Shown one piece after another: positions 8,599 to 42,536 of a stretch of 64,000 nt of DNA. The stretch spans positions 6,667 to 70,666 of the forward strand of contig JAJZCR010000003.1 in NCBI GenBank assembly GCA_021851715.1, given 5' to 3'. Made by a program: the position numbers and the translations under genes. The DNA is from Planctomycetota bacterium (GTDB lineage: Bacteria > Planctomycetota > Phycisphaerae > WQYP01). The notes below the pieces were generated by a model. That model saw only the letters and a list, made by a program, of their open reading frames with translations, did no database searches and was not told the origin of the DNA. Positions within the stretch are counted from its first letter, which is position 1, and every line of letters begins with the position of its first letter.

Positions 8599-9555
8599 TT
8601 ACAGGTTTCGGTGGTTCGACCGGCTTTTGGGCGGGGCGGCAATGACCCGTGTGGCGGGCAGGTGAATTCCCAGCAGCGCGGGGACATCACGTTCCACTAT
8701 GGCCCCCAGTATTTCCCGCGGTATCACCGGAAGATTGGTGCCTTTGGCCAGGAAGTTCAGATTGTAGAGAGTGCTGACGGCTGTTGCCGCATCGGAAAAT
8801 GGAAAGTCGCTGCCAAAACAGATTTTTTCGTCAATCTGGTGCTGGCACGCACGTACCAGGGAATCATAGGCAATCCATGGCTTCTGCAGCAGTGCCGAGA
8901 TGTCGGTATACACATTGGGATGTTTGGCCAGCAAAATAAAAGTTTCATCAATCCATGGATAACCCATGTCCGCGATAAGGATTTTCAAATTCGGAAAATT
9001 GCGGGCCACTTCATCCAGCAGGATCGGGCGGCCATAGTCCAGCTTGATGCGCGGCGATAAATACACCCCGTGATCAAAAATAATGGGGAGCTTCAGTTCC
9101 GCGGCCGCCTCATACACTTCCATGGCCCGCGTGTCACACGGATGAAAGTCCTGCGCCGCAGGGCACAGCGTAATGCCCTTGAGGCTGCTTTCCGTCGTGA
9201 TCTGCCGGACCTGCCGGCAGGCATCCTCCGCGGTGGGGTCTATCCCGGCAAAGCCGATCATCTGGTCCGCGTGTTCGCCGCAGTAATCCGCGATGAAACT
9301 GTTGGGAATATCGGCACCCAGGTAACGGCTGCAAAACCCCAGCACGAAACATCGCCCTGCAGGTTCGCTGAGAATATGGTGGCTGGCCGTGTCCGCTTTG
9401 GGCAACAGCCGGATGCGATCCCGCCCAAACACCATGGGCCGGGCCAGGTCCGGCAGCGCACCTGGCCCGAGTTGCTCCGGGCTTTGCCAGATGTGGCTGT
9501 GGCAATCAACAATCATAGGCCAGGTTCCTTTACGTGTATCAGCGGCCGCGGTCAT
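8599..9555 (-). CDS. Amidohydrolase-family protein (Amidohydro_2 type)
   Basis: IVDCHSH metal motif, GFAGIDP, LPIIFDHG, FGSDFPF. Confidence 0.85.
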   Translation of the reverse strand: MTAAADTRKGTWPMIVDCHSHIWQSPEQLGPGALPDLARPMVFGRDRIRLLPKADTASHHILSEPAGRCFVLGFCSRYLGADIPNSFIADYCGEHADQMIGFAGIDPTAEDACRQVRQITTESSLKGITLCPAAQDFHPCDTRAMEVYEAAAELKLPIIFDHGVYLSPRIKLDYGRPILLDEVARNFPNLKILIADMGYPWIDETFILLAKHPNVYTDISALLQKPWIAYDSLVRACQHQIDEKICFGSDFPFSDAATAVSTLYNLNFLAKGTNLPVIPREILGAIVERDVPALLGIHLPATRVIAAPPKSRSNHRNL

Positions 9556-17199: not shown

Positions 17200-18591
17200 T
17201 TAATTACGACTGGGAGGCCTCCGGCGTTCAACTCGGATGACGGGCGGCGTGATCGGCCGCAGGCCTTTGCTGCGATGATGACTCCGCACATAAAGGCGAA
17301 TCGGCGTTTCCGTAAGCACGGTTCTGGCCCTGAGCTGCCGGACGAAAAACCGCCGATATTCTTCCGTAATGAATTCCGGATTATTCACAAACAGCACAAT
17401 AGTGGGCGGGTACACACCAATCTGTGTGGCATAATACACCTTTACCGGGCGGGTGGTGGGGCTGCTGGGGCCGCGTAACTTCAAAATGTCCTCTACTGCC
17501 TGGTTCAATTGGCCGGTCGTGAGACGATGCCCGGCCTGGGCATGAATGGTAAAAGCCAGGTGTACGGTCTGTTCGATGTTCAGGCCTTCTTTTGCGCTGA
17601 TCCCGACAATGGGCGCATAATCCAGCCGGCGCAGAATGCTGCCGATGTAAGTGGAATACTCTTCCAGGGAAGCACGCTGGGCGACCAGATCCCATTTATT
17701 GACAACGATGATCACCGGCTTGAATTCCTCGGCAATATACGCGGCTATCTTTTGATCCACATCGCCCGATTCCTGCGTCGCATCCAGCAGCAGAAAAACC
17801 ACATCCGCCCGCCGAATCGAACGCTGGGCCCGGTGAAAGCTGTAAAATTCCAGATCGTTGCTAGTCATTTTAGATCGTTTGCGTACACCGGCGGTATCGA
17901 TGATCAGAACGCAACGGCCCGCCACCTCCACGCGCACATCCACGCTGTCCCGGGTGGTGCCCGGAATATCCGAGACAATCACGCGATTTTCACCCGCCAG
18001 GGCGTTGACCAGCGTACTTTTGCCGGCGTTACGCTTGCCCACCATGGCCAGTTTGAGTTCCGGGTTCGGCGGCGATGTTTCATCCTCTTCTGGCACAGGC
18101 AGTGCCGCTGTTACCGCATCGAGCAATTGATTGCGACCGCGATTCTGCGTGCAGGAAACGCTGATCGGCTCTCCAAAGCCCAGCGAGAAAAACTCCGCGG
18201 CATTGGCCGCCAGACGCGGACCATCCGCTTTGTTGGCCACCAGCAGTACCGGTTTGTTGAATTGTCTCAGATAGGCAGCCACGGTGCGGTCCAGCACGGT
18301 GGGGCCGTCCTTGACATCCAGCACAAAAAGCAGCAAATCCGCCGCCTGAATCGCCAACCCCAACTGCGTCTGGACCTCGGGCGCAAGCTCCTGCGAATCC
18401 GCAATGCCGTAGCCACCGGTATCGGTTAATTCAAAGGTTCGGCCGGCATGCGTCACCAGCGACGAAATACGGTCGCGGGTGACGCCGGCAGTCGGATCGA
18501 CAATGGAAATAAGCCGTCCGGTGAGAAAATTCAGCAGGCTGGATTTTCCCACGTTGGGACGGCCGACAATGGCAACATGACGCAAAGACAT
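17200..18591 (-). CDS. der: Ribosome biogenesis GTPase Der (EngA)
   Basis: Two tandem GTPase domains (GRPNVGKSS/DTGG/NKAD and GKRNAGKST/DTAG/NKWD) plus a KH-like C-terminus. Confidence 0.96.
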   Translation of the reverse strand: MSLRHVAIVGRPNVGKSSLLNFLTGRLISIVDPTAGVTRDRISSLVTHAGRTFELTDTGGYGIADSQELAPEVQTQLGLAIQAADLLLFVLDVKDGPTVLDRTVAAYLRQFNKPVLLVANKADGPRLAANAAEFFSLGFGEPISVSCTQNRGRNQLLDAVTAALPVPEEDETSPPNPELKLAMVGKRNAGKSTLVNALAGENRVIVSDIPGTTRDSVDVRVEVAGRCVLIIDTAGVRKRSKMTSNDLEFYSFHRAQRSIRRADVVFLLLDATQESGDVDQKIAAYIAEEFKPVIIVVNKWDLVAQRASLEEYSTYIGSILRRLDYAPIVGISAKEGLNIEQTVHLAFTIHAQAGHRLTTGQLNQAVEDILKLRGPSSPTTRPVKVYYATQIGVYPPTIVLFVNNPEFITEEYRRFFVRQLRARTVLTETPIRLYVRSHHRSKGLRPITPPVIRVERRRPPSRN

Positions 18592-18623
18592 CAATTCACT
18601 TCATTTTCTGGCCGGGGCTGGAT

Positions 18624-22343
<3,720 letters not shown>

Positions 22344-23489: not shown

Positions 23490-26400
23490 ATGGCTTTCCT
23501 GGATCATCTACGCACAGCATGGTACATACACGCGAGGAACCTTACCGAGCGGCGCGCCCGCCAGGGCCGGAGGCACGTGTCGAGGCGTCAGCGCCGGCTG
23601 CTTTTTGAAGCGCTGGAGCCGCGTGTTCTGCTGTCCGCCAGCGGCGGCTTTACCAACGCCGGACTGGAAGGCCAGTATTTCAACAACACCACCCTCTCCG
23701 GCGCAGCGAGCTTCGTGCGGTCCGACGTGCGCATTGACTTTAACTGGGGTTCCGGCAGCACTACCCAAGCCCCCGGCGGGTCCACCGATCCCGGCTATAG
23801 CGCCGTCGGTGCCAACAACTGGTCTGCGGAATGGACCGGCTCGGTGATCCCCGCCTTCAGCGAAACCTACACCTTCACGGCCACCGCCGACGACGGCGTG
23901 CGGTTGTATATCAAACCCACCGGCACCAGCACCTGGACCACGCTGATCAATAACTGGACCAACAGCAACGTCACCGCGTACAGCGCCAACTATACCCTGA
24001 CTGCCGGAACCAGTTACGACATCGAGCTCCAGCATTATCAAGCCACGGACCCAAGTGAACTGATCCTCCAATGGTCCAGCCCCTCCACGCCGCAAGCCGT
24101 CATCGGACCGCTGACAGAGACGGGCCTGAACAACCCCGACTGGACGGCGGCCTACACCAATCTTGTCAACGGTGCCCGTAATTCATGGAGCGGTGTCAAT
24201 GGCAATCCCGCTCCGGCCATGGATGCCAATGGTTGGCCGGAAGGTGACGGTGAGTATGTATTTCAGGAGAGTCTTAATCAAGGCCTTGGCATCGACCCTT
24301 TAATGCTTGGAACCATCAACTTCAGCTTCAATGGCTCAGCGGACGTGTCCATCATGGGAAACGTAAACAGATCCTCGCTGACCTACAGTTACAACGCCAC
24401 CACCAATACCACCACCGGGAGCTTTACCACGGTGGACAATAATATTAACGCCAGCTTTTTCATCTTCACCAACTCCAGCCGCACCGGCGTGGCTGGTGGT
24501 CCCGGCGGCATCACGAACCTGAAGTTGATGCGTCCCATCTCGCCCGGGGCCACTACCAGTTACGCCACCGGTACCACATTTACAACCCCAATGGAATCGG
24601 CGTTGAGCAATTTCACGGCCATCCGCTTCCAACTCGTAGCCAATCAACAAGTCAACTGGTCCGATCGCACCAGTCCTAACTATTTTAACCAGAGTTTCGG
24701 GGCCGTCACGAATCCACAGCTCGGCGTAGGCGGCCCGTCAAACGACGGGCCAAGTTGGGAAAATGAAATCATGCTCTGCAATGAAACCGGCCGCGATATG
24801 ATGATCAGCCTGCCTCCCCTGGCCAATGATCAGTACATCACCAACCTGGCCAACCTGCTCAGATACGGCTCCGATGCCAACGGCAATCCCTATACCGCAC
24901 CCACCGCCAACCCGGTTCATCCCGGCTTGAATTCCAATTTGCACGTGTATCTTGAGCTGGGCAACGAATTATGGAATTTTGCCGGCATTTTCAGTACCGA
25001 TTTCAATAATATCAATGCTCTGACCGCCCAGCATGTGCAGGCCAATGACGCGGACTTTCAGATTGTCAATTACGATAATCTCAGCACGGCCACCAATGCC
25101 AGCGGCCAGTACGTCTCTATGAACACATGGCGTTATCGCATGATCGTGTTGCGCATGGTCCAGATCAGCAACATTTTCCGCAGCGTGTATGGCGATGCCG
25201 CCATGCCCAATTCCGGCAACTCCAACGCCACCATCCGTCCCCTTTACGAGTGGCAATACGGAAACTTGAATAACACCGCTGAACTGGGCTTAAACTGGGC
25301 CCAAAATTATTTTGACAACGCCGATGGGGTCCAGCATGTGACCACGCCGGAACCGATCAATTATTACCTTTGGGGCGGCGGCGGAGCGACTTACTACGGC
25401 GGCGACAACAGCGAAGGCCTGACCAATCTTCCGGCCGACAACAATTTCTACACCAGCACGCCGCTACCAGCCGGTTATAACCAGGATCCGACCGGTACGC
25501 CCTTCACCTTCACCGGTACCGCCGGTATCGCCGGTTATACCGCCGGCAATGCGCTGGGTATCCCACAACCGGACAACAGCCTTTATGGCGGTGACGGCAG
25601 CTACAGCAATCAGGTCGGCTACATCACCGATGCGGGCCAAATGTCCTTTACTTTTACCACGCCGACAAACCAAACCTCAGACCTTTACGCCTTTAGCTTC
25701 AAGGCCGTGAATCGCACCGAATCCACCGGCACGGTGGACCAGGAGAACCTGCGCGTGTACCTTGATTACGGTACCGCCAACCAAGTAGATATTACCGCAA
25801 AATCCTACAGCCAAGGCAACGGTTATACGCCGGCCAGTTATGCCCAGGCCGGTTCCGATTGGGAATCCCGCGTTGTGGCGTGGACGATGTCCGATTATTA
25901 CTACACGCAAAGCACTGCTCTGGCCGCCGGTAGCACGCACACGATTACCATCGTGGGTGAGGGCGATATCGCCAATCCCAGCCTTACAAACCAGACGGCG
26001 TTTTTCACCGATGTGCGCGTGACCAGTGTGGATGCAATTTTTGCCGGAGGCATTCCTGCCGGTGGTGATGCGACCGGTCAACCGGTTGGTTCCGATTTGG
26101 TCAACACCATGAATGTGGAGGCCAATTGGGCCAAGGCTTTCGGTTTGCAGGAGCTTTCCTACGAGGGTGGCTGGTCGTTGGGGGGTGATGACGGCGGATC
26201 GTGGATACAACTTGACGCCAAATACGGCGATCCGCGCACCGCAACCGCCCAGCAGACTTATATGAATGAATTTTATCAGGCCGGTAGTTCGGTCAGCATG
26301 TTGGGTACCTATGCCCAATGGCCTGATTGGAGTGATTATTACGCCCAGCAGGGGCTATTGAATATCACGCAGTATCCCATTGTGCAGGGCATTAATAATG

Positions 26401-26855
26401 CCGCCAACACCCTGCCGCCGACGGCCACCAACGGCATTTTGGCGCCCGCCGTTTTAACTCCCGCCACCGCCTGTATTGTCGAAGGCACCGGTACGCTTGG
26501 CCAAATTACTACCGCCGGCGGCTTTATCAACTGGATGGTCGTTGTACCGACCAGCGGCTACTATACCTTGAATCTGACCACCAGCGGCAGCGGCGGCACT
26601 GCGGTGATTCTGGCGGACAGTGCCGTGGTTAACAGTGGTGCCAGTGGCGGCGGGGGCGAATTTTGCCCCTGGCAGGTGGCCAATCTGTTAATGGAAAGCC
26701 ACCAGGGCGAACCGTTTTCACAGACGGCCATGCCGGGGTCCATACCCGCTCATGGCGGGGTGATCAACGCCGGATTTGCGGATGGACACGTGGAGTCCAT
26801 CAATTCCATCCAAGCCTTTGCCACCGCGTGTACCCCGGCCAACGCCCTTCGCTAG
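23490..26855 (+). CDS. Paralogue A: LEPR-XLL leader + PA14 + GH-A-like barrel with insert + in-frame H-X9-DG prepilin tail
   Basis: RRLLFEALEPRVLLS leader; PA14 (IDFNWG...W.G...DDGVRL); ELGNELWN and SYEGGW motifs; the last 67 codons match the C-terminus of 37060..37992. Confidence 0.85.
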   Translation: MAFLDHLRTAWYIHARNLTERRARQGRRHVSRRQRRLLFEALEPRVLLSASGGFTNAGLEGQYFNNTTLSGAASFVRSDVRIDFNWGSGSTTQAPGGSTDPGYSAVGANNWSAEWTGSVIPAFSETYTFTATADDGVRLYIKPTGTSTWTTLINNWTNSNVTAYSANYTLTAGTSYDIELQHYQATDPSELILQWSSPSTPQAVIGPLTETGLNNPDWTAAYTNLVNGARNSWSGVNGNPAPAMDANGWPEGDGEYVFQESLNQGLGIDPLMLGTINFSFNGSADVSIMGNVNRSSLTYSYNATTNTTTGSFTTVDNNINASFFIFTNSSRTGVAGGPGGITNLKLMRPISPGATTSYATGTTFTTPMESALSNFTAIRFQLVANQQVNWSDRTSPNYFNQSFGAVTNPQLGVGGPSNDGPSWENEIMLCNETGRDMMISLPPLANDQYITNLANLLRYGSDANGNPYTAPTANPVHPGLNSNLHVYLELGNELWNFAGIFSTDFNNINALTAQHVQANDADFQIVNYDNLSTATNASGQYVSMNTWRYRMIVLRMVQISNIFRSVYGDAAMPNSGNSNATIRPLYEWQYGNLNNTAELGLNWAQNYFDNADGVQHVTTPEPINYYLWGGGGATYYGGDNSEGLTNLPADNNFYTSTPLPAGYNQDPTGTPFTFTGTAGIAGYTAGNALGIPQPDNSLYGGDGSYSNQVGYITDAGQMSFTFTTPTNQTSDLYAFSFKAVNRTESTGTVDQENLRVYLDYGTANQVDITAKSYSQGNGYTPASYAQAGSDWESRVVAWTMSDYYYTQSTALAAGSTHTITIVGEGDIANPSLTNQTAFFTDVRVTSVDAIFAGGIPAGGDATGQPVGSDLVNTMNVEANWAKAFGLQELSYEGGWSLGGDDGGSWIQLDAKYGDPRTATAQQTYMNEFYQAGSSVSMLGTYAQWPDWSDYYAQQGLLNITQYPIVQGINNAANTLPPTATNGILAPAVLTPATACIVEGTGTLGQITTAGGFINWMVVVPTSGYYTLNLTTSGSGGTAVILADSAVVNSGASGGGGEFCPWQVANLLMESHQGEPFSQTAMPGSIPAHGGVINAGFADGHVESINSIQAFATACTPANALR
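26653..26855 (+). repeat. Copy 1 of the prepilin 3'-end (H-X9-DG) repeat
   Basis: 203 nt, 11 mismatches to 37790..37992 by manual alignment (about 95%). Confidence 0.95.
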
Positions 26856-26940
26856 CGGCCCCGGGGCCGGCTGGGTCCCTTTGGCCGCGGCAAAGCTATG
26901 TTGACATGGCCTGCGGCGATAGGGGCATCGCCGGCTGCGG
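26856..26940 (+). repeat. Diverged spacer homologous to 37993..38104
   Basis: Shared blocks such as ggccggctgggtccct/ggccgaccgggcccct and gcggcgataggggcatcgccggctgcgg/gcggcgatgggggcatcgctggctacgg. Confidence 0.7.
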
Positions 26941-27085
26941 CTGGCATCCTCGCCGTCGCCGCCGGACACATCGCGGAAGATGAATCATGCTCAGGGACCA
27001 GACCGGGAAAGAGCAGTCGGTTTTTCTGCGGTACCGGTCGCAACCGAGCCCTATGCGAAAGCGGCCTCATATTAAAGGATAAAAC

Positions 27086-29233
27086 ATGCCCAAGTCGAAT
27101 CGGATGAACCGCCGGGAAATGTTGTCTCGCATGGCTCAACTGGGAGTCGCAGCAGGTGCCGGTGCTGTGCTGGCGAAGAACAGCCTTGCCGGCTTGCCCG
27201 GCAGGGTCATTGCCAATGCTTCCGGGCGCGGCCGTCTGGAAGCCACGGCTTCCACGGGCCGTGGGCTGAATCAGTTCGGCATGAATGTATGGAGTTGCAG
27301 CGACTGGGACGGCAGTTTTGCCTTTGTCGATGCCATGAAGCAAGCACGGCAATGGCAGACTCCCAACATGCGGGCCATGGCCTCGTACGACGGTCTGGGC
27401 TGGCCGACCCAGGACGCCGGAACTGTGGTTTATACCGGCAACGCGGAGCACATCAATGGTATATACAAGCTGCTTTTTCAAGGGCAGGGGGTCATTCGCC
27501 CCGTGTACGGTTCCCCGATGACCGTGGCCGGCCAGCGCTACGATGCCGCCACCAATACCACCACTGCCGATATAACCTTTAAGCTTTCTCCCACCGGGGC
27601 GAGCCAATCGGTTGGTTTGGCGATTCTCGATTCCAAACGCGCGCCGCACTCACCCCAAGGGTCCGGGTTTACCAACGTGCGCCTGTACCGGCCAGGTTAT
27701 CCCACCAACGGAAGCGTGGTATTCACCGATTATTACGTGAAGGCCATGCAGTTTGGCAGCGTCATCCGCACCATGGACTGGACGGCGACCAACGGCAATA
27801 CCGTGGTCCACTGGGCGGACCGGCAAACCCCGCTGACGTTCTACAAGCCGTGCCCGCCATACATTCAAGCGGGCGGCGGACGGTTGGGCGGCACCGCGCT
27901 GGGGGTAGCACTGGAGCACCAGATTCAGTTGGCCAACCAGACCCAACGCGATCTGTGGATCAATGTACCCGTGGCGGCCGATGATGATTTTGTAACGAAA
28001 ATGGCGCAGGCCCTTCGCTATGGCACCGATGGCACGAATCCTTACACTTCGCCGCAGGCCGATCCAAAATATCCTCCGCTGGATGCGGGCTTGAATGTCT
28101 ATGTGGAATTTGCCAATGAAACCTGGAATTATGCCGGTGGGTTCTGGTGCTTTTATGTGCTCATGGATATGGTGAAAAAACTGCCGGCTTCGCATCCGAT
28201 TAAGGCCATTGACCCGCAAAATAACATTTATTACACAGCGTATCGCTATACCGCATACCGGATATCACAAATCAGCGATTTATTCCGATCGGTCTTCGGC
28301 GATGCGGACATGATGCAGCGGGTGCGGCCGCAGTTGATGTGGCAGAAAGGCACCGGTGGCACTTTTGGCGAAGGGTTCACCCAAATGTGCTGGCTGGATG
28401 CCTATGGCGGCAAACAGCACCCACCCCGAACGGTGCGGAGCTATATCCATGGTGCGGGCGGTTCCGCCTACTATGGCGTCAACAAGTTGTCCGCCAATCC
28501 GGATCAATACTTTGCGGCCGGCAATTACCCGGATACAAAAACCGTTCTCGCCTTTCGTAATGACGCCATGGCTGCTAAAAATTGGGGAGTGCAGCGCGTA
28601 GCCTACGAGGGCGGCGATGGCGTGGACGGCCTGCCGACCGCCCAAATCTTGGCCATCAATGCCGATCCGCGCATGAAAACCATGACGGAATTCATGCAAA
28701 ACTACTATGCCCAACAGGGCGGAGACCTGCTGATGTACTACACCGTCGTCGGGCCGGCGGACTGGGAATTCACACCCGACATCATGAATCTCAATACGCC
28801 CAAGTTTAACGCTTTGAAGGCTCTGAAACATGGGCAGCGGGACGCGGTAACCCTTGGGCAGGCCCTACCCGGTACGCTGTGGTGTGGCGAGGTTCCAGGC
28901 GTCGGTACCGCCGGCCCCTACAGCACCAAATACAATGGCCATCGCGTTCTGGGCGGCTTTCGCAACCCCGGAACCTGGCTGGCCTTTCCGGGGCACACCG
29001 CCGCGCCTTTCACCGCTGATGTCACTGTTCAAGGCCGGCCCGGCGTGCCCAGTGTGCTGGCTATCTGGATCAACGGCATCAGATTCGGTACGGTTGATAT
29101 GACCCAACGCAATAAGGTCTGCTGGAGCAGCGTGCTTGGCAGGGTACGCATTGCGGCCGGACTGGTGATGGTGCGTGTGGAACTGGTAAGCGGCAGTCTG
29201 GACTTGTACTCGCTCAGGGTGCGCCGGGCCTGA
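27086..29233 (+). CDS. Paralogue B: Tat-exported GH-A-like protein, no PA14, no barrel insert
   Basis: NRREML twin-arginine leader; IRTMDW, EFANETWN and AYEGGDG motifs; C-terminal beta-sandwich. Confidence 0.85.
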   Translation: MPKSNRMNRREMLSRMAQLGVAAGAGAVLAKNSLAGLPGRVIANASGRGRLEATASTGRGLNQFGMNVWSCSDWDGSFAFVDAMKQARQWQTPNMRAMASYDGLGWPTQDAGTVVYTGNAEHINGIYKLLFQGQGVIRPVYGSPMTVAGQRYDAATNTTTADITFKLSPTGASQSVGLAILDSKRAPHSPQGSGFTNVRLYRPGYPTNGSVVFTDYYVKAMQFGSVIRTMDWTATNGNTVVHWADRQTPLTFYKPCPPYIQAGGGRLGGTALGVALEHQIQLANQTQRDLWINVPVAADDDFVTKMAQALRYGTDGTNPYTSPQADPKYPPLDAGLNVYVEFANETWNYAGGFWCFYVLMDMVKKLPASHPIKAIDPQNNIYYTAYRYTAYRISQISDLFRSVFGDADMMQRVRPQLMWQKGTGGTFGEGFTQMCWLDAYGGKQHPPRTVRSYIHGAGGSAYYGVNKLSANPDQYFAAGNYPDTKTVLAFRNDAMAAKNWGVQRVAYEGGDGVDGLPTAQILAINADPRMKTMTEFMQNYYAQQGGDLLMYYTVVGPADWEFTPDIMNLNTPKFNALKALKHGQRDAVTLGQALPGTLWCGEVPGVGTAGPYSTKYNGHRVLGGFRNPGTWLAFPGHTAAPFTADVTVQGRPGVPSVLAIWINGIRFGTVDMTQRNKVCWSSVLGRVRIAAGLVMVRVELVSGSLDLYSLRVRRA

Positions 29234-29395
29234 GATCGCAAGCCCGCAATTGTGGCTGGAACAGAGCACTAGTCGCTGCGACTGGCCCAACATAACGGTG
29301 CATGATCCGGCATGGCCCGCTGTTTCAGCGATGCAATCGGCGATAACGGCCTGGATTTTTTTTGTACAGACGGACAAAGGCGCAGATAAAGCCGG

Positions 29396-29742
29396 AGGCG
29401 GTGGCCCGGCGGTCATCTTAAACCAGATTCCAGGTGATGAAATGTTGCTTTCGGACTGCAGTTTGTATTCCAAATGTGGCGGGTTTTCAATATGACTATT
29501 CCCTCACCGAGGTCAATGCGAGTTATACCGTGGCCGGTTGGGGCGACTTTTGCCCCTGGCCGGTGGCCACCCTGTTAATGGAAAGCCGCCAGGGCGAACC
29601 GTTCCCGCAGACGGCCATGCCGGGGTCCATACCCGCTCATGGCGGGGTGATCAACTCCGGATTTGCGGATGGACACGTGGAGTCCATCAATTCCATCCAA
29701 GCCTTTGCCACCGCATGTACCCCGGCCAACGCCCTCCGTTAA
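29396..29742 (+). pseudogene. Copy 2 of the prepilin 3' end: 5'-truncated, frameshifted fragment
   Basis: 347 nt, about 97% identical to 37647..37992, with an extra A (TATTCCAAATG vs TATTCCAATG) near 29473. No prepilin N-terminus upstream. Confidence 0.9.
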
Positions 29743-30053
29743 GGCCAAGTCCTTAAGGCACGCTTCCCGCGCGTCGTGGATAAGACGCGCCGAATTTGGT
29801 CCGGTCTCAAGGTTGGCCTCGGTAACTGTTCTTGTGATGTTTTCATGTACAATCCAGGTCCGTGTCCGGGACTCTGCAGTATGAATTTACGTGCTGTGGA
29901 TCCGGCGCTTATTTCCACGGCCGCGCCGCCGCTCGCCCATCGCCGCAATAAACTCTGCTGCGGAACGTTGTGAATCTCATCGTCCGCCTCGCCGTGAACG
30001 GCTGTTGAACCTTGAGTGATTGTTTCAACAATTACCATTGAAGGGATTTTGCC

Positions 30054-33000
30054 ATGATTTTTCGCCAGTCATATTCAACCATACGACAGATACTCCTGCC
30101 GCTGATTGTGCTGATCGCCACCGGCCCGTTGTGCTGGTCCGCGACCCGGGCCGGTGTGGCCGGCGGATTGATGAACGCCGGCATTGTCGGCAGTTATTTT
30201 TCCAATACGCATTTTGCCGGCACGCCCACCTTCACCCGGCGCGATGACCGCATCGATTTTAACTGGGGCCGATACCGCCCGGTCGGCGGATCCAATACGC
30301 CCCAATACCACAACTTTCCACGCCGCAATTTCTCCGTGCGCTGGAGTGGCCGGGTGATGCCAGGCTATGCCGGCAAGTATATATTTACAGTTGCTTCCGA
30401 CGATGGCGCGGTGCTCACCATTCAAGGGCCGGCGTCGGCACATCCGCATACCATCATGGACAGCCGGCAACCTGGAAAGGCCCAGAGCCGGCCCGTGCAG
30501 TTGGCTGCAGGCAAGGCATATCGTTTGATTCTAAGTTACCGGCATACGTCGGGCATCGCCTATTGCCGGCTGCTGTGGAACAAAGTTGGTTCCCCGGTGC
30601 GGGTCATGGGCCCGTTGCGGGCTCAAGGCATTAACGCTACCTCCTGGGCGAAATATGTATGGGCGAATGCGGTGCGCGAAGCCTGCAACTGGTACAGGGG
30701 CAAGTCCAACGCTCACGGGGAGCTTGTCACGAACGGCACGTTGGTGGCGTATGCGGGCCGCGGCACCTACACCATGCTGTTCCACGGCCGGGCCAACGTG
30801 CAACTGCAACTGGTCCCCGGTGATTTTACCGTTGGGTCGAAGAAGTATGCGCCGACACTTCCCGCCGGGGCCGGTTACGATGCCGCCACCAACACGACAG
30901 CGGCCCAGTTGCATATCCATGGCAACCGCGGGATGTTCTTTCTAGCTTTCAAGGATACGCGGAAAAATGCGTCCGCGGCCGCGGGCACGGGTATCACCCA
31001 CCTGCAGCTTTATATGCCCATGTTTCCCGGAGCCAAAAAGTCCGAGCCGGTCGGCACGGTTGTTTACCCACCGATCCGCCGGGCGTTTTCGCACTTTACC
31101 GTTATTCGCTGGCTCGAACAGGCCAATCTGGTGGAAACCGGCCGCTGGCGGGACCGCACCGTTCCGGGCGATCTGTTTTTCACCGCCCACGCTTATGCCA
31201 ATAACAACGGCGGTGAATGCTGGGAAGACCTGGTCATGCTGGCCAACGAAACCGGAAAAGACCTGTACATTACCATGCCCGTAGCCGCCAACCATGCTTA
31301 TTTCAAGAAGCTGGCCCTGCTGCTTAAATACGGCTCTAACGGCAAGGAGCCATACACGTCCATGCGGCCCGATCCGGTTTTCCCGCCGCTGAACCCCAAT
31401 TTAAAGGTCTATTTTGAAGTCGGCAATGAAATCTGGAACTGGGCCTTTGGTTCCAGCTTCCAGGCTGGGCAGATATCTCAACGTGAAATAAAGGCAGGCT
31501 CTGCGGCTGCCAAGATATTCAACTACAATGGTCACGGCAATTACCGCACCTGGCAGGTCTGGCGAACCGTGGTCGCCAGCAATACGTTTCGTTTGGTTTT
31601 CGGCAACAAGGCCATGGGCACCCGCATTCGTCCTTTGCTGGAAGATCAATACAACAACTACAACCTCACGGCCTGGTACTCTTTGAACTTTCTGGACGGC
31701 TACTATGACAACGGCACCGGCCACAACGTGGCCCACCCGCATCCGGTGAACTATTACATCTGGGGTGGCGGCGGTGCTACCTATTACGGTGTCGGCAATC
31801 CGCTGGGACTCCAGCACCGGATACGGTTTGCCGATGCCGGCTTCGAGCAGCCGGTGCTGCCGGATTATTCCGTCAAAAAAGACCCCGCCGGGACCCCATG
31901 GCATTTTCAGGGTGACGCGGGCATTTATCGCTGGGCTTCCCACGCCGTGGCCGGCTTCGCGGGCGGAAAGCTCCACAATTGCAACACCAAACAGGCCGTC
32001 GGTATGCAGTTCAGCGTGGGACCGCGGCCGATATTGGTTCACGCGATGGGAGGTTATCTCAACGGATTCATGCCTTCCGCGGCGGTGGTGCTTCTGAACG
32101 CGTCGAATCACAAGGTTCTGGCACGCGTGGTGTTGCCGCAGCAGCGGCCGGCCGATGCATTTTCCGGCGTCTTTTTGATCCGGCTTCAAGCGCCGCTTCA
32201 ACTTGAGCCCGGCCAAAAGTATGATCTTCTGGAAACGCCCCTGCAATACTGGTCCTGGCATCCCTTTACCCTCTATGGTGCCGGCACCAACATCGTGGCC
32301 GGACCGGGAGTTTCCGTGCTGGGGCCGGTTTCCGCCGCAGTGACATCGCCCGATCCGGGCCGATGGACTCTGCACTTCCATTCCGCCGTTGGACACGCCT
32401 GCGGACCCGTGGATTTCGACTATAGCAGTTCACCTTCACCATCTCATGCGGTCGCTTTTCCGAAACCTCTTGCCGGCTGCCAGGCGGCGTTTATCCGCGG
32501 CCGCGGCTCGATGGCACAAACGGTTAACTTCTCCAAGCCCGGTGATTATGCGCTGCTGTTTAATGCCGCTGGTTCCGGCAAGGGTTGGCCCAGTTACACT
32601 CCATTTCAAGTCCTGTGCGACAACCACAACGCCAGTCCGGCCCAGCAGAACAGCGATTTGATTGCACCCACGGCGGCCATAGGCGGGTGGGGCCGGCAGA
32701 TTAAAAACTTGCGGGAACACTACGGCAGTGCCGTATTTCACGTGGCCACGGCCGGACCGCATGTCATCCGTATTCAGGGCATGGGCAAAGGCGGAAAAGC
32801 GCCCCGGCCGTTTATTGTCTTTGATCACATCCGAATCTGCAGCGTGGCCAGCATCATCAACAGTGGGTTTTCTTCCGGCCAGGCGGCCGGGCAGGTAAGC
32901 CAGAACAACTATGCCAGGCAACTCAACGGCCAGGCCCAGTACCCCACGGCATTCGGCCTGCACGTGGTCGCCTACGAAGCCGGCTGGTCTTTGGGTGGAG

Positions 33001-33548
33001 ATTTTGGCAGCGTGCCCATCCAGGCTTTTGCCAAGTTCCATGCCCCCGGTGCCACCACCATCAATAACGCTGCAGGCGAAATTTTCGCCCACAGTGGCGG
33101 GTTTCTTAATGTGTGGGGTGTCTACGGCTATTGGCCCTCATACAACATCGCCCATGCCGGACGCTATCCTCTGATGAAGAGTGTCATTCATCTTGCGAAT
33201 ACCGTGCCGCCCGCTTCCAATGCGGGAATTGCCCTGCCGGCAACGCTTTCGTCGACCAATGCCATCCAGTGGACCTGGCAGAAACCTGTCGCTGAACTGG
33301 GCCGCCCTGGTGCCTGGCTGAGTTGGATTGTCTGCAATCGCACGCCGCATACCGCTGTTTTTCATCTGAAGGTTCAAGCTTCCGGCAACGGCCGGTATGA
33401 TGTGTTGGTGGACGGTCGTGAGCTTGTTGCCAATCAGCCCGTCGCCCACGAGGTCGCGGTCACCGTACACCTTGCACCAGGAGATCATGGCATTCTCGTG
33501 CGCAACGCCGGCGGGGCCATGTCCATCCAGGCTGTAACCTGCCGTTAA
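30054..33548 (+). CDS. Paralogue C: Sec signal + PA14 + GH-A-like barrel with large insert + C-terminal beta-sandwich
   Basis: Signal peptide; PA14 (RIDFNWG, SDDGA); EVGNEIWN and AYEAGW motifs. Confidence 0.85.
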   Translation: MIFRQSYSTIRQILLPLIVLIATGPLCWSATRAGVAGGLMNAGIVGSYFSNTHFAGTPTFTRRDDRIDFNWGRYRPVGGSNTPQYHNFPRRNFSVRWSGRVMPGYAGKYIFTVASDDGAVLTIQGPASAHPHTIMDSRQPGKAQSRPVQLAAGKAYRLILSYRHTSGIAYCRLLWNKVGSPVRVMGPLRAQGINATSWAKYVWANAVREACNWYRGKSNAHGELVTNGTLVAYAGRGTYTMLFHGRANVQLQLVPGDFTVGSKKYAPTLPAGAGYDAATNTTAAQLHIHGNRGMFFLAFKDTRKNASAAAGTGITHLQLYMPMFPGAKKSEPVGTVVYPPIRRAFSHFTVIRWLEQANLVETGRWRDRTVPGDLFFTAHAYANNNGGECWEDLVMLANETGKDLYITMPVAANHAYFKKLALLLKYGSNGKEPYTSMRPDPVFPPLNPNLKVYFEVGNEIWNWAFGSSFQAGQISQREIKAGSAAAKIFNYNGHGNYRTWQVWRTVVASNTFRLVFGNKAMGTRIRPLLEDQYNNYNLTAWYSLNFLDGYYDNGTGHNVAHPHPVNYYIWGGGGATYYGVGNPLGLQHRIRFADAGFEQPVLPDYSVKKDPAGTPWHFQGDAGIYRWASHAVAGFAGGKLHNCNTKQAVGMQFSVGPRPILVHAMGGYLNGFMPSAAVVLLNASNHKVLARVVLPQQRPADAFSGVFLIRLQAPLQLEPGQKYDLLETPLQYWSWHPFTLYGAGTNIVAGPGVSVLGPVSAAVTSPDPGRWTLHFHSAVGHACGPVDFDYSSSPSPSHAVAFPKPLAGCQAAFIRGRGSMAQTVNFSKPGDYALLFNAAGSGKGWPSYTPFQVLCDNHNASPAQQNSDLIAPTAAIGGWGRQIKNLREHYGSAVFHVATAGPHVIRIQGMGKGGKAPRPFIVFDHIRICSVASIINSGFSSGQAAGQVSQNNYARQLNGQAQYPTAFGLHVVAYEAGWSLGGDFGSVPIQAFAKFHAPGATTINNAAGEIFAHSGGFLNVWGVYGYWPSYNIAHAGRYPLMKSVIHLANTVPPASNAGIALPATLSSTNAIQWTWQKPVAELGRPGAWLSWIVCNRTPHTAVFHLKVQASGNGRYDVLVDGRELVANQPVAHEVAVTVHLAPGDHGILVRNAGGAMSIQAVTCR

Positions 33549-36741: not shown

Positions 36742-36862
36742 TCCCCGTGGCGCCCTTTGCGATCTTCTCGTTTCCGCAGTACATCATTTCCCCACGTACG
36801 CCTAATTTGGCTTGGTTTCATTGGCTAAATAGCGGCAAGATTCACAAAAAAATATTTTAAAC

Positions 36863-36893
36863 TTTGCGCCAAACGAATCAGGATTTGCGCAAA
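36863..36893. promoter_or_regulatory. Second tandem operator TTTGCGCCAA-N11-TTTGCGCAAA
   Basis: Boxes at 36863-36872 and 36884-36893 with a 21-bp period. The upstream A/T tract is also conserved with 23282-23301. Confidence 0.65.
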
Positions 36894-37059
36894 ATGGGCT
36901 TTTTTAGCTTCCGCGATTGGTGTAACCTCAACTTCAGATGGCGCAGGTCGCGAGTTAAATCAGTTGTGCGGAAGGCGTTCTTCCGGCGTTCGCCGGAACC
37001 ATTCGCAATCTGGGCTCGCCGCTGTCGGAGATGGCTCCCATAGGGAGCAAGGAGTTTTT

Positions 37060-37992
37060 ATGTTGTCCAAGTCACGTTCCACAATTTTGCTGGCTGCGGC
37101 TGGCAAACTAAGGCGTGCGTCCGGTTTTACCCTGGTGGAGCTTTTGGTGGTAATTTCGATTATCGCCATTCTGATCGCCTTGCTGTTGCCGGCACTGGCG
37201 GCAGCGCGGCAGGCCGCCGATGTTACATTATGCGCCAGCAACGAGCGGCAAATTGTGCTGGGCATTCAATATTACGCGCAAGATTACCAAGACATGGTGC
37301 CGTTTAATGGTGCCGATGGCGGTGCGTGGTTTGACAGTCTGGGCGGTGCGCCGTTGATGCAGAATTATGCACCGATTCGCTACCACATGACTTCGTATTT
37401 ACCCGGTTTGGATACCGGTTATTATGGCTACAACCATCCCAGTTCCGCAGTGTGGCTGTGCCCACTTTTTCAGAATGCGTTCCAGGGCCAGAACATGACC
37501 AATTTTTATCATCCGGTGTCACAATACGTTGGCCAGGGGGCCAAGTACCTTCCATGCAATTATTCGCTCAACGCGAACTTGTATGCATACATGAATGGGA
37601 GCAATCAATATGTCAGCCCGCTGCCGTTGCCGTACGGATCTCCCAAAGGCGGTGGCCCGGCGGTCATCCTAAACCAGATTCCAGGTGATGAAATGTTGCT
37701 TTCGGACTGCAGTTTGTATTCCAATGTGGCGGGTTTTCAATACGACTATTCCCTCACCGAGGTCAATGCGAGTTATACCGTGGCCGGTTGGGGCGCCTTT
37801 TGCCCCTGGCAGGTGGCCACCCTGTTAATGGAAAGCCGCCAGGGCGAACCGTTTTCACAGACGGCCATGCCGGGGTCCATACCCGCTCATGGCGGGGTGA
37901 TCAACTCCGGATTTGCGGATGGACACGTGGAGTCCATCAATTCCATCCAAGCCTTTGCCACCGCATGTACCCCGGCCAACGCGCTACGATAA
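37060..37992 (+). CDS. Prepilin-type N-terminal cleavage/methylation protein (DUF1559-like) with C-terminal H-X9-DG motif
   Basis: [32 protein letters not shown]...CASNERQI; [21 protein letters not shown] Shine-Dalgarno before ATG 37060. Confidence 0.93.
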
Positions 37993-38225
37993 CCGGCCCG
38001 CGTGGCCGACCGGGCCCCTCCAACTGCGGTGATGGGGATCCAGCATGGCGGTGCGGGAATTGCGCTTGTGTTTGCCGCGGCGATGGGGGCATCGCTGGCT
38101 ACGGGGTGGACTTTGCGGCGGGATAGGTTGCACACAAACGCCTGGTCAGCGAACAAAACCAGATGCGTCATCAAATATTATGTTATTAGGGGCGGCCACT
38201 TTATAACTTTATTACTGGAGCTTTT

Positions 38226-41200
38226 ATGTTTCATGAGTCATACCGGAATCGCGGGCGCGATGTGCCATTATTCGTGATTGCCGTGGCTTTGATATTCCTG
38301 GTGGTGGCGGCAGGGTCCGTGGGGACGGCTGCGGCGGGGCCGTTAGTGGCCAGTGGAGGGGGCTTTCTGGGCGGGGGAATAAAAGGGCAATATTATGTGG
38401 ACCATGCCGGACGGCATTTCGCCGGAAAGCCAGTTTTTTCCCGGCGCGATGTGCGCATTGATTTTAACTGGGGGCCGCATTCCAGCTTTTACACCGTGGC
38501 GGGCAGCAATACGTACCGCTTGCCGGATCGGCATTTTTCAGTGAGCTGGCGGGGCCGTCTGATGACACGCTACAGCCAAACCTATCAGTTTTCTGTGACC
38601 AGCGCGGGTGGTGGAGCACGGGTGGAAATAAAGCCCGCAGGAACTAAAACCTGGACAATGCTGGCCGACGCCTGGACGGCCCACCATCTTCAGCGGAACC
38701 ACAAGAGCCTGCCTCTGATTGCCGGAAAGGTCTACGACTTTCGGGCGCAGTATTATCACCGCAGCGGCGCGGCCCGGATGCAGGTTCGGTGGGTGTGTCC
38801 GCTGACCCGGCGCAGGGCCATTGGTCCGGTGGAGCGCGTTGGTGTGAACGGTTCCACCCCTATTGATTGGGATCCCGGCCTGATGTTTGCAGATGTGATT
38901 AAAACCTGCCGCATTGGGCAACTGTCGCCTCATTTAAGTGCCCATGGCTGGCCCATCGGCAATGCGAGTTTTGTACTGTTTACTCTGCCCGCCAACGCCG
39001 CCGGCACGTACACGCTTACCTTCAAAGGGCGGGCGAAAGCGACTATCGCCTGGATAAAAAACCGTGTTATCTCCAGCCATTATGATGCCGTCGATAACAC
39101 CACCACCGAAATTATACGATGTGGTGCGGGCCACAAGGCCGAGTTGGTCCTTCAACATACGCGGCGGCTGCCCACCGACCATCACGCCACCGGCGTAACC
39201 GATATCCGGCTGATGCGTCCCATTGCGATTGGCGCGCATACCAGCTATCCGCCTACCACCACGTTTACCACGCCGTATAAGACCTTGCTGCGTAAATTCA
39301 CAGCCATCCGATTCATGGATTTTCTGGGCATGAACAGTCCCCAGGGATTCAACGGCGGCAACGCTCTGGTCCATTGGAGTCGGCGCCTCAGGCCCAGTTT
39401 TTCATCCCAAACCGGGGTGCATTATGCGTATCAAGGCGCTGGAGGCGCTTTGGAATACGCAGTGGAACTCTGCAATGAAACCGGCAAGGACATGTGGATG
39501 AATATTCCCATGCCGGCGGACAACGGCTACCTGCACAAACTGGCCCTGGCCCTGAAATATGGCTTTGATGCGCACGGTAATCCGTACACCAGCCGGCAGG
39601 TGGATCCCGCCTGGCCGCCGCTGAATTCCAATTTACGCGTTTACCTGGAATATTCCAATGAGGTGTGGAACGGCGGGTTTTATCAGCATAATCTGTGCTC
39701 CCAACTGGCTCTGCGGGCGGTGAAAGACCACTCCCGCAATGGCCTTATTCTCAGCTACGATCACACCACCAATCCGACGCTGCTGGGCCAGCGCTGGTGG
39801 ATACTGCGCACCAAAGAGATCAGCGATGCTTTTCGCCAGGTCTGGGGCAATGCCGCGATGATGCGGGTGGTGCGGCCGGTGTTTGAATTTCAGTACGGCA
39901 ATTACAACAACACCGCGGACCTGACGCTGCAATTCCTGGCCAATTATTTTAACAATGAGGATGGGCACCATGTGGCGCATCCGCATCCGTTGAATTACTA
40001 TCTGTACGCAGCCGGCGGCGGCTGGTACAACACCGTCAATAACAACAGCGGTCTGGGTGCGGTAAAAATCAGCAACCGCCATTTTCAGATGCCCGTCGTC
40101 GCGGCCAATACGGTCCAGACCGCCCCCGTTCATGCCAATTGGAGATTCTCCGGTGCCGCTGGCCTGGTGGGAGCCAATCCTTCCGCCACATCTGCCGCCG
40201 TTGCCACCCATCTGGGTTCGCTGCTCAAGTCGTCGCAGAAGGGTAATCAAGGCGTGGGGTATCGCTTTACCGTTGGCAATCACAACCTGGACCTGCAATC
40301 GATCGGCTATTACGTCGCCAAAGGCGATTGGGCGACCCACGTTATCTTTCTGCTCAATTCCCACCGGAAGCTTATGCTGCGCAGCGTGGGTATCGCCACG
40401 GCCCACCAGCCGGTGGGCCACTATGCCTATGCGAACGTCGGGCCGGTGGAGCTTAAGGCCCATCATCATTACTACCTGATTTCGCTGATTTGTTCCTGGA
40501 CCAGGCGCGATTCCTATTATGGCCCCAATACCACACTGCAAACCACTCCGGACATTCGCGTTGACTGTGCTGAATCCGCAGTGATGCCCAAAGCATATTG
40601 GCTCTCCAGGCAATGGGTGTTCCACCGCGGCCCGTCCGGCCATGTGGCTGGGCCGATCAATTTTACCTACGTATTGGCCCCGTCGGCCAAGGCCATGCCT
40701 CCGCGACCGCAGGCCGTATACGGTGCCCAGGCGGCTTATCTGCAATCCGGGGGCAGCCTGTCGCAAAAAATAGACATGCCTGCCGGTGTATGTGATGTGC
40801 AGGTTCTCGCATCCTCATCCACCGCAGCCAAGGATGATTTCCAGGTGCGTATCGGTCGCCACATTCTGCATGGTGGCTGGCCGCCGAACATCACGCCGGA
40901 GGCCGGAGCCTATCAATGGTACACGGTTGGCCCGGCGGACATTCGCGTGGCCGGCGTGCATAAGTTTGAGTTGATCAAAGGCTCGGGCCAGGGGACTATT
41001 TTCATCAATGCCGTGCGTGTGGTCACGACCGCTCCGATCATCGCTTCCGGGTTAAAAAACACCACCCCCGTCTGGAGGACGGAAGCGGACTGGGCGCGGG
41101 CTTATGGCCTGCGCACGGCGGGTTATGAAGGCGGTTTTGAAATCGGCGGTGACAGTCCCAATGGAGTAACAATGGCCGCCAACGTCGCTCCGCGTGTCAA

Positions 41201-42536
41201 GCGGTTTACCGCCGAGACGCTCCAGGATTACCTTTCCGCGGGCGGCAATGTGCCGATTGTGTTCTGTGTCAGCGGCGGCGCTTACTCCGTGGTGATGAGC
41301 TCTCCCCTGGGTATACCCAATATTTTCTGTCAGCATACGCCCAAGCTGGCCGGGTACAGGCAGGTGATGGCCCATCTGCCTCCGCCGGTGAGCAATGGAA
41401 TACTGATACCCACGGTGCTTACCCCGGCGAATGCAACCCTGGCTTATGACAATCCGCCGCATGAAACATGGACCTATACCGATCCCAGCGGTGTACTGAA
41501 ACGCATGGGCGGCTGGATGAGTTGGAACATTCTGGTGGCTGCGGGCGGCATGTATCACGTGGCCGCAACCGCCGCCACCACGGGCCGGTATGAACTGCTG
41601 GTGGATTCGGTGCCCATTGCGCAAGGTGGCGCGGGCGCATCGGCCGCTGGCTCGATTCGCCTGACGCCCGGTTTGCATGCGGTGAAAGTCCGCAACCTCG
41701 GCAACGTAGCCGTGACGGTGCGGCAGATCAGCGTCACCCAGGTGGGTGCGCCGGCGGCACCCCGCTTGCGCAGCGTAATTGTCAGCCCACACACGGCCCA
41801 GTTGCGTTGGTCGGCTGTTCCGGGAGCGTCGGGCTATATCATTGCCTGGGGAGCAGCGCCGGGAGCCATGACCCATTTTGTCGATGCCGGAGTAGCCGTT
41901 TCCAAAACGATCTCTTCTGGAATAAATCTCGCCAGGGTTCATTATTTTGGTGTTTTGGCTTATGGTCCGGCCCGGCAGCGCGGCATGACGTCCAATATCA
42001 TTCGGGCGGTGTGGTTTGCATCATCGCCGTTGCAGGATCTGAAATTTGGTTCGCTCCGGGTGGGTACCAGGTTCCGCCAGGTCCAGTTGCATGGTTTTAA
42101 TATCTTTGGATGGGGCGGCGGAGATTTTCTGCAGGTGCAGGGCAAAACTCAACCGCGGAAACAGCAGGTATGGCCGGGCGGCTGGCCGGAAACCATGCTC
42201 TTCTCGATGACCTGGGGGCATAATTTCGGCATTGTCCAAGCGGACGGCAAGCCATTGACGATGCATTCCATGGACGTTGCAGTCAACTATGGCCATGAAC
42301 AGGATAGCTGCATCGTGCGTGGTTACGACCCGGATGGCATTTGCGCCTTTCAGAAAGTGGTGGCTTTTGCCATACCGCAGAAGAGGCAGGCCGCCTGTGT
42401 GCATCTGTCCCTCCACTGGATCGATGTTTCGCGTGTGGATGTCATCTGGACCACGGGCCGGCACGGAACGGGTCGCGGTCGTTTCGGGGCCATCGGCAGG
42501 ATCGTGGTGGGCGGCGGCAGCGATGTGTTTCACTGA
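38226..42536 (+). CDS. Paralogue D: Sec signal + PA14 + GH-A-like barrel with large insert + beta-sandwich + FN3-like + extra C-terminal domain
   Basis: Signal peptide; PA14 (RIDFNWG, but DD replaced: TSAGGG); IRFMDF, EYSNEVWN and GYEGGF motifs; FN3-like LRWSAVPGASGYII...YFGVLAY. Confidence 0.85.
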   Translation: MFHESYRNRGRDVPLFVIAVALIFLVVAAGSVGTAAAGPLVASGGGFLGGGIKGQYYVDHAGRHFAGKPVFSRRDVRIDFNWGPHSSFYTVAGSNTYRLPDRHFSVSWRGRLMTRYSQTYQFSVTSAGGGARVEIKPAGTKTWTMLADAWTAHHLQRNHKSLPLIAGKVYDFRAQYYHRSGAARMQVRWVCPLTRRRAIGPVERVGVNGSTPIDWDPGLMFADVIKTCRIGQLSPHLSAHGWPIGNASFVLFTLPANAAGTYTLTFKGRAKATIAWIKNRVISSHYDAVDNTTTEIIRCGAGHKAELVLQHTRRLPTDHHATGVTDIRLMRPIAIGAHTSYPPTTTFTTPYKTLLRKFTAIRFMDFLGMNSPQGFNGGNALVHWSRRLRPSFSSQTGVHYAYQGAGGALEYAVELCNETGKDMWMNIPMPADNGYLHKLALALKYGFDAHGNPYTSRQVDPAWPPLNSNLRVYLEYSNEVWNGGFYQHNLCSQLALRAVKDHSRNGLILSYDHTTNPTLLGQRWWILRTKEISDAFRQVWGNAAMMRVVRPVFEFQYGNYNNTADLTLQFLANYFNNEDGHHVAHPHPLNYYLYAAGGGWYNTVNNNSGLGAVKISNRHFQMPVVAANTVQTAPVHANWRFSGAAGLVGANPSATSAAVATHLGSLLKSSQKGNQGVGYRFTVGNHNLDLQSIGYYVAKGDWATHVIFLLNSHRKLMLRSVGIATAHQPVGHYAYANVGPVELKAHHHYYLISLICSWTRRDSYYGPNTTLQTTPDIRVDCAESAVMPKAYWLSRQWVFHRGPSGHVAGPINFTYVLAPSAKAMPPRPQAVYGAQAAYLQSGGSLSQKIDMPAGVCDVQVLASSSTAAKDDFQVRIGRHILHGGWPPNITPEAGAYQWYTVGPADIRVAGVHKFELIKGSGQGTIFINAVRVVTTAPIIASGLKNTTPVWRTEADWARAYGLRTAGYEGGFEIGGDSPNGVTMAANVAPRVKRFTAETLQDYLSAGGNVPIVFCVSGGAYSVVMSSPLGIPNIFCQHTPKLAGYRQVMAHLPPPVSNGILIPTVLTPANATLAYDNPPHETWTYTDPSGVLKRMGGWMSWNILVAAGGMYHVAATAATTGRYELLVDSVPIAQGGAGASAAGSIRLTPGLHAVKVRNLGNVAVTVRQISVTQVGAPAAPRLRSVIVSPHTAQLRWSAVPGASGYIIAWGAAPGAMTHFVDAGVAVSKTISSGINLARVHYFGVLAYGPARQRGMTSNIIRAVWFASSPLQDLKFGSLRVGTRFRQVQLHGFNIFGWGGGDFLQVQGKTQPRKQQVWPGGWPETMLFSMTWGHNFGIVQADGKPLTMHSMDVAVNYGHEQDSCIVRGYDPDGICAFQKVVAFAIPQKRQAACVHLSLHWIDVSRVDVIWTTGRHGTGRGRFGAIGRIVVGGGSDVFH

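Follow-up and report, generated by a model that had tools for sequence, protein, structure and literature searches.

A probable strain-level deletion chimera of a PA14 protein and a prepilin-type H-X9-DG tail in an uncultured planctomycete

Chimeric open reading frames that arise by illegitimate, microhomology-mediated deletion are well known in bacterial genomes. The chimera that we describe here differs from the known cases in nothing essential: a 3-nt microhomology links two genes of the same orientation, the DNA that lay between them is gone, the frame and stop codon of the downstream gene are used, and the event is specific to a strain. It is unusual for its size (9.2 kb and four genes) and because a recognizable C-terminal motif was kept in frame. 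It is a standard deletion-generated chimera, and it is also a truncated member of the PA14 family.

Both of the parent families have been described. The PA14 secreted proteins of Planctomycetota and Verrucomicrobiota are 1300-1940 aa long, with a PA14 domain, a body, a sandwich, and an FN3 domain. Residues 1-1056 of the chimera are a typical member: they have the PA14 domain and the conserved body of ~800 residues, and they are 74% identical to a protein of 1937 aa. Unlike the other members, the chimera is truncated inside the sandwich (the break is at aa 1056), lacks the FN3 domain and all other distal domains, and carries a foreign tail. The second parent belongs to the prepilin-type H-X9-DG or DUF1559 family of the PVC superphylum (TIGR04294 and PF07596, with a TIGR02532 N-terminus). 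The last 66 residues of the chimera are a bona fide 3' end of this family (PW...H-x9-DG-HVESINS). However, the helix with the cleavage and methylation site is missing, and so is ~80% of the globular head: a complete head has ~230-300 residues between the helix and the motif, and only the last 66 of ~290 mature residues are kept. With a LEPR-XLL type leader in place of the prepilin N-terminus, the tail is a fragment and not a member of the family. Planctopirus has 68 DUF1559-type paralogs, two of which are essential (PMC10632474); the function of DUF1559 was not addressed in the literature that we searched. Given so many DUF1559-type paralogs beside exported enzymes, we would expect scars of this kind to recur.

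The stretch of DNA that we analyzed, which we call the window, is 64,000 nt long. These are its features that matter here:

23490..26855, plus strand: chimeric ORF of 1121 aa, in which the truncated gene A runs into the pilin tail, frame open
23598..23663, plus strand: LEPR-XLL or planctomycete extracellular N-terminal motif at aa 37-58 (NF012209 score of 26.9 bits, cut-off 17)
23655..24089, plus strand: PA14 domain of the chimera, aa 56-200 (PF07691, E = 3.9e-14)
24090..26441, plus strand: large uncharacterised body of gene A, with homologs in paralogs B, D, and E and in a wide family of PA14 proteins of 1300-1940 aa
26442..26655, plus strand: N-terminal part of the truncated C-terminal sandwich (CBM-like) of gene A, cut after ...NSGASGGG
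26653..26655, plus strand: deletion junction, GGG common to both parents (junction peptide of the chimera, ...NSGASGGGGEFCPWQVANLLMESHQGEPF...)
26653..26855, plus strand: what is left of a prepilin-type H-X9-DG gene, its last 66 codons and the stop
26856..27085, plus strand: spacer before gene B, which is the original 3' flank of the lost pilin gene
27086..29233, plus strand: gene B (paralog of 715 aa), the right-hand neighbor, intact
29396..29742, plus strand: remnant of a second pilin gene, truncated at the 5' end and frameshifted by a 1-nt insertion (A), with 97% identity to the intact gene
30054-33548 and 38226-42536: gene A paralogs D and E
36964-37992 (gene row 37057..37992), plus strand: intact paralogous prepilin-type H-X9-DG gene, the reference for the tail (TIGR02532, 25.2 bits against a cut-off of 16.3)

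The original prediction, made by reading the sequence, was that a hydrolase-like protein switches in frame to the H-X9-DG tail of a pilin at 26653. Our analysis confirms the switch. The gene A part ends ...TAVILADSAVVNSGASGGGG and is followed in frame by EFCPWQ...NALR and a stop codon; the sandwich ends abruptly after ...ILADSAVVNSGASGGG, and the pilin-derived frame runs from nt 26653. The protein was also expected to combine a LEPR-XLL leader with an H-X9-DG motif and to lack a prepilin N-terminus, and it does. Besides the NF012209 match, PF07595 matches the leader region weakly. The motif is H1088-GGVINAGFA-D1098-G1099 (nt 26751-26786), and searches of the chimera for a prepilin N-terminus with TIGR02532 and PF07963 gave no match. 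TIGR04294 scores 17.1 bits on the chimera, which is just below its cut-off of 19, as are the scores of intact members of the family at this locus (16.7-16.9 bits). The body of gene A, which had been predicted to be hydrolase-like, has no match in Pfam, NCBIfam, or the sequences in PDB. A scan of 26500-27200 for promoters and terminators found none.

We searched 40 related genomes with the sequence of the chimera. One of them, G004 (contig C88 of the MAG Planctomycetota bacterium DBS1-1.bin122, JAJYDW010000070.1), matches residues 119-1056 at 99% identity and has gene A as an open frame of 1803 aa. There, gene A continues for ~865 residues beyond the junction point, with the rest of the sandwich, an FN3 domain (residues 991-1062 of the ortholog), and further domains including a DUF1349-like region. 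Past the junction it reads AITGVVYLAKGNHSIAVRS...FLVSQVSIVGQ and then enters the FN3 domain; the continuation reads ...ASGGGAITGVVYLAKGNHSIAVRSAGSTAFLVSQVSIVGQ... A complete gene A in close relatives, together with a lack of other such fusions, had been named beforehand as evidence against the tail being a module. The closest relative does have a complete gene A with a much longer C-terminus, and our searches of the relatives, of the genome itself, and of 1.84 billion representative proteins gave no second fusion.

In this relative, gene A is followed, in order, by a PEP-CTERM protein that resembles S8 subtilases, a regulator of the AraC type that has a periplasmic-binding domain, two further PEP-CTERM proteins, an intact prepilin-type H-X9-DG gene of 350 aa, the ortholog of gene B, and a 5'-truncated pilin remnant. 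The 3' end of its pilin gene and the 3' flank match the tail and the spacer in the window. On the left, 15 of 2804 nt of gene A upstream of the junction differ (99.5% identical); on the right, the spacer at 26856-27085 differs from the relative's pilin-to-gene-B spacer at 2 of 230 nt, and gene B differs from its ortholog at 20 of 2148 nt. Overall, the flanks of the deletion are 99.3% identical, and the genes on either side differ by 0.5-0.9%. The interval that is absent from the window is L029 2814-12027 in G004, or 9,214 nt, and with it went 45% of gene A, four whole genes, and five-sixths of the pilin gene. The core of the claim that a deletion joined two neighboring genes is therefore supported, as the 99.5%-identical ortholog keeps everything between. 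But the event was larger than proposed, and the genes were not immediate neighbors, as four genes and ~865 codons of gene A lay between them.

Two other observations came from this comparison. First, the window's MAG and G004 have the same genus label but share 99.3% identity across 5.3 kb (window 23844-29395). Judging from this identity, they are probably strains of one species, or else the locus was exchanged recently. Second, the AraC-type regulator (L029 7418-8845) carries a Peripla_BP_3 sugar-binding domain; it is deleted in the window, and only a paralog at 65-68% identity is left, on C56.

The sequence at the junction is ..GGCGGCGGGGCCATA on the A side, ..GGTTGGGGCGCCTTTT on the pilin side, and ..GGCGGCGGGGGCGAATTTT in the window. 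The sole perfect overlap is GGG, within an imperfect patch of 16 nt. A microhomology had been placed at 26653, which is the correct position; it had been given as GGGGCG, but comparison with the undeleted relative gives GGG only.

The tail's DNA shares 92-95% identity with the 3' end of the intact gene (36964-37992) and with the positional ortholog in G004. The likeness of the fused copy to the intact gene continues for ~30 nt past the stop codon, with a further patch of 28 nt. Because the homology extends beyond the stop codon, the fused copy is the remains of a whole gene that was once there and not an inserted domain. In all, the window holds three copies of the 203-nt piece: 26653-26855, the remnant at 29396-29742 (347 nt), and the 3' end of 36964-37992.

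Could the 9.2 kb have been inserted in the relative instead, so that the window would show the ancestral state? There is just one closely related genome to compare with, which leaves some room for this idea. However, the insert would have to complete the sandwich exactly, along with the FN3 architecture of ~100 homologs and the first 285 codons of the pilin gene. Paralogs D and E run beyond aa 1054-1056 of gene A, and homologs of gene A at 76% and 55% identity, from related genomes, also extend past aa 1054. We found 125 database homologs at E <= 1e-50, with query coverage of up to 95%; none covers more than 95% of the chimera, so none covers the pilin tail. About 120 database homologs, typically 1300-1940 aa long with FN3, all continue beyond aa 1054-1056, as do profile-search matches of 1706 and 1937 aa. 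All of the relatives of the pilin have prepilin N-termini. The completeness of the domains in all homologs effectively refutes an insertion already, and we give it practically no weight.

A more practical concern is that the junction might be an error of assembly, either a chimeric contig or a minority deletion variant that the assembler took for the main path. This MAG has 154 contigs and is 88% complete, and the tail is a repeat with three copies at 93-97% identity. But the join lies at the boundary of unique and repeated sequence with just 3 shared nt, and a false path of this kind is not expected in a de Bruijn graph with k = 141 (the value of k is taken from the contig's name; it is a MEGAHIT k141 contig, 87,316 nt long). 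Also, an identical protein is encoded on a second, longer contig: the 1121-aa protein is recorded on 3 contigs, the longest of 152,322 nt, although the two assemblies that contain the chimera may share reads. The 9.2-kb segment is missing from the whole bin; searching the rest of the 3.87-Mb assembly for it turned up only paralogous pieces at 65-96% identity. Finally, the tail has private substitutions, and its flanks match the orthologous position in G004. A scan of JGI metagenomes for the exact 31-nt pattern of the left flank gave no match. Given the contigs and the sequences, the junction does not look like an obvious artefact, and we think that an error of assembly is a decidedly unlikely explanation.

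Our preferred explanation is that the chimera came from one recent deletion of ~9.2 kb that is specific to this lineage and took place through illegitimate recombination at GGG, and that the half sandwich and the tail are probably an unconstrained appendage. We put the probability of this at roughly 0.78. The ancestor would have had gene A (~1921 aa, with a LEPR-XLL leader, PA14, the large body, the CBM-like sandwich, FN3, and further domains), the S8 subtilase-like PEP-CTERM protein, the AraC or periplasmic-binding-type regulator, the two PEP-CTERM proteins, the prepilin-type H-X9-DG gene, and gene B, in that order. A double-strand break or replication slippage would have come first. Microhomology-mediated end joining between G-runs in gene A and in the pilin gene would then have removed the 9.2 kb that separate codon 1056 of the former from codon ~285 of the latter. 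The frames would have matched by chance, which should happen about 1 time in 3. Because the join is in frame, translation of the truncated gene A would carry on across the 66 remaining pilin codons and end at the stop codon of the pilin gene. If gene A's promoter, which is unchanged, drives transcription of the ORF, then the product would be a secreted PA14 enzyme without the distal strands of the sandwich, FN3, or the other C-terminal domains. It would end in 66 irrelevant residues, and gene B would retain its original upstream spacer. The strain would also have lost the subtilase-like protein, the sugar-type AraC regulator, and the two PEP-CTERM proteins.

The divergence of the tail points to relaxed constraint. 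The fused tail differs from its positional ortholog in G004 at 7 of 203 nt (3.4%), with four amino acid replacements (A to E, T to N, R to H, and S to A) and one silent change, and all of the changes are private to the fused copy. The flanks have diverged by 0.71% over 5.3 kb, which is significantly less (P = 0.001, Fisher test). The pilin pseudogene remnant at 29396-29742 has diverged by 3.4% as well. The local synonymous rate is ~1.6% and is compatible with the tail (P = 0.05, or P = 0.23 if two adjacent doublets are counted as single events). Meanwhile, the tails of the intact pilin copies in the two genomes are identical as proteins, and dN/dS for genes A and B is ~0.25. The enzyme part thus keeps its constraint, whereas the tail evolves as the neighboring pseudogene does. 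Since residues 1-1056 are still under purifying selection, they probably continue to work as a secreted enzyme.

We also considered positive selection on the tail and rejected it, as the divergence fits the local synonymous rate and equals that of the pseudogene remnant. On the other hand, the positions of the tail that are invariant in the family (P, W, H, G-V-I-N, F, D-G, and others) are all intact, and the four replacements are all at variable positions. With so few changes, this has a probability of ~0.2 by chance. From this pattern, the tail may be under weak residual constraint.

An AlphaFold 2 (AF2) model of the intact pilin has a pLDDT of 69. In this model, the tail consists of a loop of low confidence, a short helix, the beta-hairpin of the H-X9-DG motif (residues 281-295), and a terminal helix; as modelled, it is a fragment of the larger pilin head. 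A Foldseek comparison of the model to the PDB had no matches at E <= 0.001, and the matches to TcpA and CofA were at the level of chance. The original prediction had proposed modelling the truncated sandwich together with the tail, and AF2 gave no confident fold for this end of the chimera (137 aa, mean pLDDT of 40), which is weak evidence, as the alignment for the sandwich half is shallow. MAFFT misplaced the sandwich halves of the paralogs onto the tail, and these were left out of the alignment before folding. The half sandwich and the tail are probably an unfolded appendage that selection does not constrain.

If the H-X9-DG end were a portable module, as had been suggested, then we would expect to see it on other proteins that are not prepilins. 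We did not find any. All 11 of the loci with a related tail, from five genomes, encode ordinary prepilin proteins of 283-363 aa. Within the window's own genome, the motif occurs without a prepilin N-terminus in the chimera, in the remnant at 29396-29742, and in a copy on C123 that was split by an insertion sequence (IS), and nowhere else. A search for the tail among proteins of 616-1962 aa found none, and a profile search of 1.84 billion representative proteins never found the sandwich and the tail together: the tails were in short pilins or fragments, and the sandwiches were in long PA14 proteins. A strict regular expression did give apparent H-X9-DG proteins that are not prepilins on C73 and C79, but these were false, as the N-termini were normal on inspection (GF(T/S)L(T/I)E). 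The matches to the regular expression on C40 were unrelated proteins.

What can be said for a working tail is that the fusion is in frame, that the invariant residues of the tail are all intact, and that H-X9-DG pilin-like genes are conserved upstream of PA14 enzymes in several genomes, which makes a functional link plausible. The tail would then keep its native interaction, for example with the partner or the envelope site that recognizes this motif on pseudopilins, and would give the secreted enzyme a new localization. Yet neither the 99.5%-identical relative nor any other genome or protein that we searched has the fusion, the tail evolves like the adjacent pseudogene, and the chimeric end is not predicted to fold. 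The in-frame outcome, for its part, has a prior of 1 in 3. The 66 residues are just part of a larger fold: they are a loop, a beta-hairpin, and a short helix from a pilin head of ~290 residues, and for that reason we do not see them as a docking or sorting module. We consider a working module quite unlikely. A specific form of this idea, that the chimera is expressed and exported via the LEPR-XLL leader and that the surviving PW...H-X9-DG hairpin still binds a partner of this huge, uncharacterised family of pseudopilins, seems to us more doubtful still. If it were true, then the chimera would be a natural experiment, in which the motif is a transferable interaction element that does not depend on the prepilin helix. 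The other possibility in the original prediction, a neutral deletion scar, is the one that the evidence favors, given the undeleted relative, the lack of comparable fusions, and a tail that evolves like a pseudogene. Most likely, this is a strain-level deletion chimera and the tail is an unconstrained passenger.

The truncated pilin copies might also bring to mind the silent pilS cassettes of Neisseria, which are promoterless, 5'-truncated pilin fragments near the expressed pilE. Here, two promoterless 3' fragments, including the fused one, lie at most 11 kb upstream of an intact copy, both diverge faster than their own flanks, and the substitutions among the copies look mosaic in the alignment. 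They could then be donors that diversify the intact pilin gene by gene conversion. But unlike the Neisseria cassettes, these fragments are the most conserved part of the family instead of the variable part, and they derive from recent deletions; the fused one was formed only recently, by the deletion described above. Furthermore, the intact copies of the two genomes are identical as proteins across the fragment region, and the private changes of the fragments are absent from both of the intact copies that we examined. It would be very surprising if these fragments were donor cassettes.

If our preferred reading is correct, then this uncultured planctomycete of the Phycisphaerae type offers a clean and well-documented example of how a microhomology-mediated deletion makes a chimeric ORF that stays in frame. 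The chimera has little importance in itself. However, annotation pipelines would label it as "LEPR-XLL / H-X9-DG", and surveys of protein architectures could take such scars for new architectures. Also, a comparison of the two strains could reveal what purpose the lost regulator and gene A's distal domains serve.

More broadly, this locus of glycan enzymes and pseudopilins is in flux: there are three units of a pilin followed by an enzyme, two of the pilins have decayed, a further pilin was split by an IS, and four genes including a regulator were lost. The remnant at 29396-29742 is an older 5' truncation that is found in at least three genomes (also in G004, at L029 14622-15101, and in protein P0124), with the common start ...FFVQTDKGADKAGGGGP... 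In the relatives, it is an open frame of 142-159 aa. The remnant has diverged about 5 times as fast as its flanks, which is also true of the fused tail. The split gene, at C123:17417-20234 (minus strand), is an H-X9-DG pilin that is interrupted after ...QYYAM by an insertion of 1.7 kb. The insertion encodes a DDE_Tnp_1/DUF772 (IS5-like) transposase at 18299-19741 (plus strand), and the ortholog in G004 is intact (L055 5266-6174).

An H-X9-DG pilin-like gene lies directly upstream of a PA14 paralog at three places in the window (26855-27086, 29742-30054, and 37992-38226) and also at L047, at L048, and in G002:C14, with spacers of 231-312 nt. The conservation of this pair in several genomes of the genus suggests a functional pairing of a pseudopilin and an exported enzyme.

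The intact pilin gene in the window has an unusually long leader, with 22 residues before G|FTLVELLVV. Its 5' untranslated region and first 14 codons (window 36813-37100) share 91% identity with the leader of a PEP-CTERM gene (L029 ~8991-9278), and the leader region also resembles the start of the S8 subtilase gene (L029 5531-5760). From these similarities, unrelated genes of the locus seem to share a cassette with the promoter and the leader, which would explain why the pilin's leader is so long. Another variation on the family is at C73:4821-11149, where three prepilin-type proteins of 460-504 aa are encoded in tandem. They have an identical C-terminus (RHLGQINVSFTDGSAHTV) and a long Gly/Asn-rich insert, which looks like a beta-helix, between the helix and the motif.
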